Below are positions 19,342 through 26,079 of a DNA stretch of 64,000 bases, piece after piece (within the stretch, counting starts at the first letter, position 1; each line of letters begins with the position of its first letter). This DNA is from an uncultured bacterium. Its GTDB lineage: Bacteria; Patescibacteriota; Minisyncoccia; UBA6257; 2-01-FULL-56-20. The DNA lies in assembly GCA_963807165.1 (NCBI GenBank), contig CAWDZM010000004.1, positions 2,670 to 66,669 on the forward strand, in the 5' to 3' direction. Below the pieces are notes generated by a model. That model was not told where the DNA came from and ran no database searches. It saw nothing but the letters and a program-made list of their open reading frames with translations. Both the position numbers and the translations under genes were made by a program.

Positions 19342-22300
19342 ATGGCACAATTTACCTCCACTAAAGACTTTTCAAAATCAAAACCGCTTATCTCTCCGTA
19401 CAACCTTAACGAGGCGCAGTTGAAGTCGTACCAGTGGTTCCTCGAGAAAGGGTTGAATGAATTGCTGGAGGAGATCTCTCCGATCCGTGATCATACCGGA
19501 AAAGAGTTTGAATTATATTTTTCCAATTATCGTTTTGACGAACCGAAGTATGACGAGACGACCGCGCGCTACAAAGAGGCGACGTACGAGGCGCCGCTTC
19601 GTTGCACGCTCCGGTTGGTAAACAACCGCACCGGTCACGAGAGCAAGCAGGAGGTATACTTCGGGGACTTCCCGATCATGACCACGCGTGGCACGTTCAT
19701 CGTGAACGGCGTCGAGCGCGTCGTCGTTGCTCAGCTCGTCCGCTCCGCGGGCGTGTACTTCACCGCCGTGCCATATCGCGGCCGTCAGCTCTTTGGCGCA
19801 AAGATCATCCCGAACCGTGGCGCGTGGCTTGAGTTCGAGACTGACATTGACGGCATGATTAGCGTCAAGATCGACCGCCACCGCAAGGTGCCGGTGACCG
19901 ACCTGCTCCGCATTTTCGGCATGGATACGGAGACCATCAAGAAGACATTCGAAAAGGATGACAGCGGCCTTATCAAATATATAGAGGCGACATTAAAAAA
20001 AGATGTGGCCAAAGATGCCGCAGAATCATATATCGAGATCTATAAGCGTCAGCGCCCCGGTGATCCTGCCGCAGCAGACACCGCAAAGAACCTGATCGCG
20101 GCCATGTTTGAGCGACCGGACCGCTATGACCTTTCCGAGGTCGGACGCTACAAGATGAATCAGCGCTTGGAGCTCAATAAAAAGAAGCTCAACAAGTTGC
20201 TCGATTCAGAAGATCTTATTGCAATCATCAAAGAGATCATCAAGTTGAATAATAATCCAGAATCCGAGCCGGATGATATTGACCATTTGGGTAATCGCCG
20301 CCTTAAGGCGGTGGGTGAGCTCTTGCAGGGTCGTTTACGTATCGGTCTCGCGCGGTTGCGCCGCATCATCCAGGACAGAATGTCCACGGAGGATAAGGAC
20401 AGCCTGATGCCGGCACAGCTCGTCAACTTCCGCCCGATCGCGGCGGTCATCAAGGAATTTTTTGCATCATCCCAGCTCTCGCAGTTCATGGATCAGGTGA
20501 ATCCGCTCGCGGAGCTTGAGCACAAGCGCCGCATTTCCGCACTCGGTCCCGGAGGTCTCACGCGAGAACGCGCGAGCTTCGAAGTTCGCGACGTGCATCG
20601 CTCGCACTACGGCCGCATCTGTCCGATTCAAACGCCTGAAGGTTCGAACATCGGTCTTATTAACTATCTCGCAAGCTACACCCGCATCAACGACTTCGGG
20701 TTCTTGGAGGCGCCGTACGCAAAGGTGGTGAATGGCGTCGTCACGAAGGAGATCGTTTGGTACGACGCTTCGGAAGAAGAGAAGTTCAAGATCACGCACG
20801 CCGGTAGCCCGAAGGATGCCAATGGCAAATTGATAGGCCCGACGCTCGAGGCGCGCATCAAGGGCGAGCCGGGAACCGTCACGCCGGATGAGGTTGATCT
20901 TATCGACGTCGCGCCGCACGAGTTCATCTCCGTTGCCACGTCGCTCATCCCATTCCTTCAGCACGACGATGCTAACCGCGCATTGATGGGTTCGAACATG
21001 CAACGTCAGGCGGTCGTGTCCGTCAAGCCGGACGCCGCGTACGTTTCCACCGGCCAGGAAGAGAAGGTGGCGCTCGATTCGGGCTACGTCATCGTCGCCG
21101 AAGAGAATGGCGAGGTCATCGAAGTTGATGGCGCGCATCTCAAAGTGAAATATGCAAAAGCGACAAAGAATTACACGCTTGAGAAATTTAAGCGCTCCAA
21201 CCAGTTCACGTGTATCTCGCAGAAGCCGCTCGTGCTTCGCGGCGACATGGTTAAAAAAGGCCAGGTACTCGTTGACGGTCCTTCGATCGAGAACGGCATC
21301 CTCGCACTCGGGCAGAACTTACTCGTTTCATTCGTCTCGTGGGAAGGCGCCAATTTCGAAGACGCCATCATCATTTCGGAGCGCGTCGTTCAGCAGGATC
21401 GCTTCACTTCGATCCACATCGATGAATATTCGTGCGATGTGCGTGATACGAAGCTCGGTCCGGAAGTGACGACCTACGATATCCCGAATGTCTCAGAAGA
21501 TAAATTGAAGAACCTCGATGAAGAGGGAATCGTCCGCATTGGCGCCGAAGTAAAAGCCGGCGACATTTTGGTCGGCAAGATTTCGCCGAAGGGCGAATCG
21601 GAGCTGACTTCCGAAGAGCGCTTGCTTCGCGCCATCTTCGGCGACAAAGCACGCGATGTAAAAGATACCTCGCTCACGCTTCCACACGGAAAGATCGGCC
21701 GCGTGGTGAACGTTAAGATTTTTGATCGCGAGCGTGGCGACAAGCTGGAGCCGGGAATCATTCGCCGCATCCAGGTGGAAATCGCGGAACTCCGCAAAGT
21801 GCAGGCAGGCGACAAGCTCGCAGGCCGTCACGGTAATAAAGGTGTTATTTCCCAGGTTCGCGCCGTAGAAGACATGCCGTACTTGGAGGATGGAACTCCG
21901 GTGGACATCATTTTGAATCCACTCGGCGTCGTTTCCCGTATGAACCTCGGGCAGATTTTGGAAACGCATCTTGGCTATGCGGCACAGAAGCTCGGCTATC
22001 GTGCTATCACGCCGGGATTGGATTCTGCGACGGAACAGGATATTCGCGATGAGTTGAAGAAGGCCGGTTTGCCGGAGGACGGCAAGATGAAGTTGTTCGA
22101 CGGCCGCACGGGCGAGGCGTTCCAGAACCGCGCGACGGTCGGGCAGATCTACATGCTCAAGCTCAACCACTTAGTGGAAGACAAGGCGCACATGCGCTCG
22201 ATCGGTCCTTACTCATTGATCACCCAACAGCCGCTCGGCGGAAAGGCACAGTTCGGCGGACAACGCTTTGGAGAAATGGAAGTGTGGGCATTGGAAGGCT

Positions 22301-25300: not shown

Positions 25301-26079
25301 CCGGAGCCGACATCACGCACGGTCTACCGCGCGTTGAGGAAATCTTCGAGACCCGCGCACCGAAGGGCCGCGCGATCCTCGCGCCGTTCGACGGCACGAT
25401 TGATAAGATCGAAGAGCGCGGCACGCTCAAGGTAGTTCGTTTCATCTCGGAAAATAAAAAGGCAAAAGCACAGGAGATCAGCGTCTCGCGCGGAACGGTT
25501 CTTTATGGAAAAGCGGGGGATAAGGTCACCAAGGGCGACCAGCTTTCGGAAGGAAATATGGATATCCATGAACTCTTCGAACATCGCGGCATGGGAGCAG
25601 TGGGCCGCTATATCGTGAACGAAGTGCAGAGGATTTATCTTTCGGAAGGTGCTTCGATCAATAACAAGCACATCGAAATGATTGTGAAGCAGATGTTCTC
25701 GCGCGTAAAGATATCCGACGGCGGCGATGCGGATGATTTCGTGATGGGAGAGATCGTCGAGAAATCGAAGTTCCTTGAGGTGAACAGGGAGCTCAAGAAG
25801 GCGGGCAAGCGGCCGGCCAAAGCGGAAGAGGTGTTGCTCGGCATCACCCGCATCTCACTCTCCGCAGAATCGTTCCTCTCTGCGGCATCGTTCCAGGATA
25901 CCTCCCGCGTGCTCGTCAAAGCCGCAATTGAGGGCAAGATCGACAAGTTGCGCGGTCTTAAGGAAAACGTCATCATCGGCCGGTTGATCCCTGCCGGTAA
26001 GCGTGACCTTCCCGCAGACGAAATGCTCCACGAGTCGGACGTGGCGGAAGAAGAGGATGCGGCCGTCGTGGCTGAATAA
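19342..26079 (+). CDS. rpoBC: DNA-directed RNA polymerase beta-beta' fusion protein (rpoB fused in frame to rpoC), 2245 aa
   Basis: N-terminal rpoB motifs ([30 protein letters not shown]) run straight into the rpoC N-terminus ([43 protein letters not shown]; zinc finger [23 protein letters not shown]; [12 protein letters not shown]). No stop, with a junction near nt 22485-22510. Confidence 0.9.

Follow-up and report, generated by a model that had tools for sequence, protein, structure and literature searches.

The 64-kb stretch of DNA analysed here (in the following: the window; part of contig CAWDZM010000004.1, assembly GCA_963807165.1) derives from a genome of the Paceibacteria, which belong to the candidate phyla radiation (CPR). 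It carries rpoB and rpoC, which encode beta and beta' of the RNA polymerase, as one continuous gene, rpoBC. We are highly confident that rpoBC is a genuine, vertically inherited fusion encoding one beta::beta' chain. Its open reading frame (ORF) is intact, all domains are complete, the arrangement is conserved throughout a clade and under purifying selection, the fused genomes are monophyletic, and their unfused sisters have rpoB and rpoC side by side. A single polypeptide in vivo, with a benefit for assembly or stoichiometry, would be the expected consequence, judged from the gene sequence. The original prediction, made from the letters of the window, had proposed such a fusion and considered it genuine; both statements are borne out by the analysis.

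Reading frame, modules and junction

In the ORF list of the window, rpoBC is a single ORF with an ATG start, and its translation contains no internal stop. Frame, length, junction position (within 22485-22510) and junction sequence agree in every point with those first proposed. The gene is composed as follows:

19342..26079, plus strand: fused rpoBC gene, 2245 codons plus stop, predicted product of 251.2 kDa
19342..22494, plus strand: beta (RpoB) module, aa 1-1051, delimited by Pfam, NF001616 and PDB alignments
22270-22290, plus strand: GEMEVWA of beta, a sequence motif
22495..22509, plus strand: junction DRKDA, aa 1052-1056, free of stop and start codons and of any added linker
22504..26076, plus strand: beta' (RpoC) module, aa 1055-2245, delimited by PDB alignments, Pfam and TIGR02386
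22669..22725, plus strand: N-terminal zinc-binding motif of beta' (CxCx13Cx2C, aa 1110-1128), 54 residues past the junction
23965..23985, plus strand: NADFDGD, the catalytic motif in beta' (aa 1542-1548), a sequence motif
25249..25287, plus strand: conserved C-terminal beta' segment, aa 1970-1982, a sequence motif, which we take to be the start of the trigger loop

All six RpoB domains of Pfam (Rpb2_1, 2, 3, 45, 6 and 7) occupy aa 22-1046 in the proper order, and the five RpoC domains (Rpb1_1 to Rpb1_5) occupy aa 1056-2170, so that a gap of only 9 residues separates the last beta from the first beta' domain. The protein passes the cut-offs of two rpoB equivalog models, NF001616 (1517.4 bits vs. 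896; aa 7-1045 correspond to model positions 3-1094 of 1096) and TIGR02013 (1499 bits vs. 801), and of the rpoC equivalog TIGR02386 (1519.6 bits vs. 963.5; aa 1060-2219 correspond to model positions 2-1139 of 1147). The beta module is compact and lacks large lineage-specific insertions. In beta', the cysteines of the zinc motif are invariant in alignment A2, and a second cysteine cluster is located at aa 1863-1944.

Alignments with solved structures delimit the junction closely. Homology to the beta chains in the PDB stops at about aa 1050, and homology to beta' begins at D1055/A1056, which corresponds to residue 4-6 of beta' in the Streptomyces and M. tuberculosis structures. RpoB is complete (aa 1-1051) and RpoC nearly so, lacking only about 3-5 N-terminal residues. 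The rpoC N-terminus, described at first as retained, has lost its Met and a few residues. Similarly, the 'few linker residues' described at first form a short junction indeed, but effectively none were added: The sequence ...ENEGDRKD resembles the normal RpoB C-terminal tail of an unfused relative, locus L066 (...EEDRKTN followed by the stop). No solved fused beta-beta' chain was found among the best PDB matches.

An ATG at 22505, which arises when GAT GCC is read out of frame, was considered as a relic of the rpoC start and rejected, since it is in the wrong frame and its product is unrelated to beta'. It lies 11 nt past a GAGGG and opens a 150-aa ORF (22505-22957, plus strand). Of six relatives inspected, five (L001, L003, L004, L005 and L007) lack the ATG. 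Most likely, this is a chance ORF in GC-rich coding sequence.

Conservation among homologues

A search of 5.8 billion proteins yielded homologues of which the best 120 were listed, with identities from 94% down to 70%. All 120 are fused and contain both domain sets, which is the outcome of the comparison with the closest relatives that had been proposed as a check. Their names point to Paceibacterota, Pacebacteria, Liptonbacteria, Ryanbacteria, Minisyncoccia and Patescibacteria, and they were drawn from JGI, ENA, NCBI and Logan assemblies of many independent metagenomes. 114 of them are 2240-2322 aa long; the other six (1971-2038 aa, two labelled partial by NCBI) are truncated or partial but span the junction. 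The nearest 90% cluster has 56 members, the listed full-length ones among them comprising 2219-2250 aa. The junction has the same length in 110 of 117 homologues, with 1-13 extra residues in only a few. Its consensus in the clade is x-D-R-K-D-D/N-F, within the wider consensus fniqply.e.dRkddFsALkI.vASpedIl.WSHGEV.

The frame is open over the junction in the GTDB species representatives L001 and L003-L007. For the whole gene, the stop-to-stop frame comprises 2243-2300 codons in L001, L003, L004 and L006. Synonymous sites are saturated in these four (pS 0.63-0.77). dN/dS amounts to 0.09-0.14 in L001, L003 and L006; in L004, dS is too saturated for a calculation.

Locus L002 belongs to a related metagenome-assembled genome (MAG) based on long reads. 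It is located on OY970354.1, the 829-kb 'chromosome 1' of MAG MFD04540.bin.2.12, and is the closest genome match by junction identity (99%), with a DNA identity to the window of only 86%. Compared to the window, its rpoBC shows 63 gap openings and a longest ORF of 386 aa, a pattern that resembles uncorrected indel errors. Gene calls for the essential rpoBC will be fragmented in this genome.

Origin and phylogeny

One genome per GTDB species was scanned by junction alignment, followed by a check of frame and stops. In the fused loci L001-L007, the junction is equal to that of the window or at most 3 codons longer. Two further kinds of fusion were found: an Adlerbacteria group (L022, L023, L027 and L035), whose junction is 9 codons (27 nt) longer and contains the linker ...MRGGEPMRSARKTQGAEAGDF..., and a Woesebacteria-like locus, L036, with a junction 23 codons (69 nt) longer. 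In the remaining informative loci, rpoB and rpoC are separate.

A neighbor-joining (NJ) tree was calculated from 534 columns covering the beta C-terminus and the beta' N-terminus, with the linker left out. The fused clade of the window is monophyletic in 98 of 100 bootstraps and the fused Adlerbacteria clade in 100 of 100. The two are exclusive sisters in none of the 100 bootstraps, and their common ancestor has at least 11 unfused taxa among its descendants in every replicate; they are independent events. L036 stands beside the unfused Woesebacteria locus L064 on the most distant Patescibacteria branch of the NJ tree, a placement given without a bootstrap value. Accordingly, there are at least three independent rpoB-rpoC fusions in Patescibacteria. 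The fused clade of the window lies within the Paceibacteria/Parcubacteria (Liptonbacteria, Ryanbacteria, 'Paceibacterota'), and its fusion is very probably inherited vertically. In 74 of 100 bootstraps, the sister of this clade is the unfused L008 and/or L009.

In the nearest unfused relatives, rpoB and rpoC are spaced by -8 to +15 nt. From rpoB stop to rpoC start, the distances are:

L075: 8-nt overlap (ATGAATAA)
L068 (Colwellbacteria): 1 nt
L066: 2 nt
L012 and L024: 3 nt, in frame
L078: 5 nt
L008: 15 nt, in frame (...EAK, stop, SSRKT, then MDFKGIKL)

As the two genes abut in these relatives, loss of a stop or a deletion of about 20 nt suffices to create the fusion. It most likely arose once, at the base of the window's clade, in an ancestor with abutting or overlapping rpoB and rpoC. 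Either the rpoB stop would have been lost in a short in-frame spacer of an L008-like ancestor, or a deletion of about 20 nt in an L066-like ancestor would have eliminated the stop together with the spacer and the initial codons of rpoC. In the latter case, the L066 beta tail ...EEDRKTN (stop) and the beta' start MDKEINFKALKI would yield ...E.DRKD.F.ALKI. The dipeptide RK is common to the fused linker and the translated L008 spacer, but is offset by one codon; it may be taken as a hint at a read-through origin, not as proof. Stop loss and micro-deletion would both fit, and the comparison of junctions gives no choice between these candidate events. Under either scenario, the few 'linker residues' are ordinary beta tail or former spacer. 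The view that the fusion is genuine and no accidental read-through stands; historically, it may have arisen by read-through of a very short in-frame spacer, such as the sister genome L008 has.

The titles of several MAGs conflict with the position of their polymerase in the tree (L005, L007, L008, L011, L012, L024, L030, L036, L066, L079 and others). They read 'uncultured Candidatus Saccharibacteria', 'uncultured Gammaproteobacteria' or 'Candidatus Pacearchaeota archaeon', and these names look unreliable: In the NJ tree, the polymerases group with Patescibacteria, often beside named Parcubacteria lineages.

One chain or two

Translation from 19342 would give one 251-kDa beta::beta' chain, in which the last structured residues of beta run straight into beta' from about its 4th residue. 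This chain would most likely stay uncleaved and combine with sigma and two alpha subunits to form an RNA polymerase that is ordinary in other respects. Tethering would fix the catalytic subunits at a ratio of 1:1 and render their association intramolecular, which is the likely benefit.

Improbable, though the best of the alternatives, is a truly fused ORF from which two separate subunits are nevertheless made, either because translation also starts internally, close to the junction, or because a protease cuts the precursor. The product is known here from its gene sequence, and DRKD is charged and probably surface-exposed, a location in a loop between two strands being proposed by a low-confidence AlphaFold2 model. 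For internal initiation, the window offers an in-frame TTG at codon 1045. However, this codon is CCG, CCA or CCC (Pro) in five of six relatives and TCC (Ser) in L007, and none of the start codons ATG, GTG and TTG is conserved in frame around the junction, 43 codons of L001 being free of them. A consensus scan revealed neither promoter-like nor terminator-like sites on the plus strand inside rpoBC. Moreover, in Helicobacter, the only natural precedent that has been tested, it is the fused chain that accumulates (Zakharova 1998, cited in PMC4081817).

The probability that a sequencing or assembly artefact, i.e. a lost stop codon or an indel, joined two normal genes is vanishingly small. One small error could mimic a fusion where the genes of unfused relatives are only -8 to +15 nt apart, and the related L002 is full of indel frameshifts. 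However, the same fused junction, with the same length, recurs in more than 120 independent homologues that were obtained in different projects and with different assemblers, the frame has stayed open despite saturated synonymous divergence, and the fused genomes are monophyletic instead of scattered. Because all best homologues are fused with a fixed junction length and an open frame at such divergence, an assembly error can be regarded as excluded, and a decaying copy likewise.

Although only 64 kb of the genome are in view, there is practically no likelihood that rpoBC is a decaying or redundant extra copy beside functional separate rpoB and rpoC genes: dN/dS is about 0.1 across the whole length, all catalytic motifs are intact, the equivalog cut-offs for rpoB and rpoC are both passed, and no RNA polymerase subunit is encoded by the other large ORFs of the window that were scanned. 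CPR genomes are smaller than 1 Mb, and duplicated core genes are rarely kept in them.

Some points weigh against an inherited fusion that yields a single chain. The fused chain is known from its gene, and post-translational cleavage may occur. The window represents 64 kb of the genome, which bears on separate rpoB and rpoC copies as well as on rpoA and rpoZ elsewhere. The list of loci is biased towards junctions in the same frame, which tblastn merges into a single match, so that frequencies are not readable from it, and the NJ tree is a simple one. Furthermore, AlphaFold2 prediction of a 420-aa junction fragment from a 22-sequence alignment reached a mean pLDDT of 56 and a pTM of 0.48 and lends no structural support; DRKD is placed in a loop between two strands at this low confidence.

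Comparison with known fusions

Helicobacter/Wolinella and Wolbachia are the documented cases of natural beta-beta' fusion (PMC1557499, PMC6403173), in agreement with what the original prediction had stated. The Helicobacter protein is expressed as a fused polypeptide (Zakharova 1998, as cited in PMC4081817). In addition, active polymerase has been obtained from E. coli beta and beta' joined by engineering (Severinov 1997, as cited in PMC1750930), and it has been proposed that fusion helps assembly (PMC1750930, PMC4081817, PMC9696931).

RpoBC of Helicobacter/Wolinella shares with the window's gene the natural in-frame fusion, the single beta-beta' chain and the character of a rare genomic change that defines a clade. 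Furthermore, its relatives in Campylobacter have overlapping rpoB and rpoC (according to the title of Zakharova 1999, cited in PMC1557499), as these genes abut or overlap in unfused Paceibacteria. It differs in belonging to an unrelated phylum, in its independent origin, in its length of about 2890 aa compared to 2245 aa and in its junction sequence. Wolbachia, a host-associated bacterium with a reduced genome, likewise has one gene for a single beta-beta' polypeptide (PMC6403173), which is of independent origin and about 2840 aa long. The E. coli tether (Severinov, Mooney, Darst and Landick 1997, as cited in PMC1750930) joins the C-terminus of beta to the N-terminus of beta' as in the window. 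As it assembles into functional polymerase, the window's topology is compatible with activity. It is artificial, whereas the natural fusion is under long-term selection. The Adlerbacteria-type and Woesebacteria-like rpoBC genes are also fused and from Patescibacteria, but have longer, unrelated linkers.

NCBIfam holds one fused-family model each for the Helicobacter type (NF007172, PRK09603) and the Wolbachia type (NF011417, PRK14844). With the former, the window protein reaches 2184 bits (cut-off 5372), with the latter 2089 bits (cut-off 4632), each time in 6 stretches. Since these scores are far below both cut-offs, it is a member of neither family.

An exhaustive search with a 400-aa junction query recovered the family of the window as a single 50%-identity cluster. 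Besides, 21 other long representatives (P0122-P0236, 1809-2836 aa) align over the junction as one segment; they may mix real fusions with truncated, chimeric or misassembled entries, some of the short ones probably being truncated. Among them are Mycoplasma wenyonii AFN65042.1 (a 'Multifunctional fusion protein' in UniRef), MBQ6520178.1 from an Anaerolineaceae MAG and MDR1577725.1 from a Deltaproteobacteria MAG, and some are called 'subunit beta-beta'' by IMG. With fused representatives in many 50%-identity clusters, rpoB-rpoC fusion appears to be recurrent across bacteria and wider than the usual statement 'Helicobacter and Wolbachia' suggests. In the searchable literature, no report on rpoB-rpoC fusion in Patescibacteria, Parcubacteria, CPR or hemoplasma was found. 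Sequences of the fused clade have long been public, labelled 'beta'', 'beta' or 'hypothetical protein'; a look-up of the window's exact protein in public assemblies gave no match.

Genomic context and other features of the window

The window has a GC content of about 52%. rpoBC is located outside the classical rplKAJL-rpoBC operon: Upstream are ftsW/rodA and yceG (mltG), downstream rpsF, ssb, rplK and gatB. The spacer preceding the gene is

19116..19341, no strand assigned: intergenic region yceG/mltG-rpoBC, 226 nt, AT-rich leader

Within it, positions 19160-19341 comprise a purine/G-rich tract (GGGTTCTGGGGGGGGTAGGAAGGAGGGTAGAGG) followed by a very AT-rich leader (AAAAATTTTTTAAAAAAATAAATC-ATG). 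A consensus scan of 19116-19341 revealed no sigma-70-like promoter, and no Shine-Dalgarno sequence is recognisable before the rpoBC ATG. The sigma-70 gene rpoD is located at 58323-59630.

A complete 23S rRNA gene (12338-15321) and a 5S rRNA gene (15665-15780) are present, and no 16S rRNA gene was found anywhere in the 64-kb window; therefore, the rRNA operon looks unlinked. A tRNA gene (11613-11683) and a dUTPase gene are situated directly upstream of the 23S gene, whose end is overlapped by a probably spurious ORF (15247-15639). Two aminoacyl-tRNA synthetases are short. The threonyl-tRNA synthetase (31738-33162, minus strand) has 475 aa, with its first Pfam match, tRNA_SAD, at aa 2-53 and none upstream; the alanyl-tRNA synthetase (60130-62157, plus strand) has 675 aa and stops directly behind the tRNA_SAD domain. 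Positions 49572-52967 (plus strand) encode a probable surface protein of 1131 aa, in which DUF11 repeats are matched six times (E 5e-159), and positions 43637-45586 a histidine kinase with a dCache domain.

Conclusions

The rpoBC gene of the window is a real, independently arisen case of an already known type of beta-beta' fusion, for which the lineage is new. It will not surprise a specialist and does not overturn the understanding of transcription. Since the curated fused-family models miss rpoBC of the window type, databases name the protein plain 'beta'' or 'beta', and it may be mishandled by pipelines designed for rpoB and rpoC as separate genes. As a clean rare genomic change, the fusion marks a large subclade of the Paceibacteria and is useful where the tree is hard to resolve. 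The fusions in Patescibacteria, at least three in number and independent, each have neighbouring lineages in which the genes abut, and they show how translational coupling of genes passes into fusion. Being natural and linker-free, the beta::beta' core, which falls short of the proteins of Helicobacter and Wolbachia by about 600-650 aa, is a possible scaffold for structural or synthetic work. Chances are about even that beta-beta' tethering is a recurrent solution in ultra-small CPR bacteria instead of a curiosity of two lineages. If a functional driver exists, be it assembly at very low copy number or the loss of omega or another assembly factor, the fusion would be the mark of an adaptation in minimal cells.

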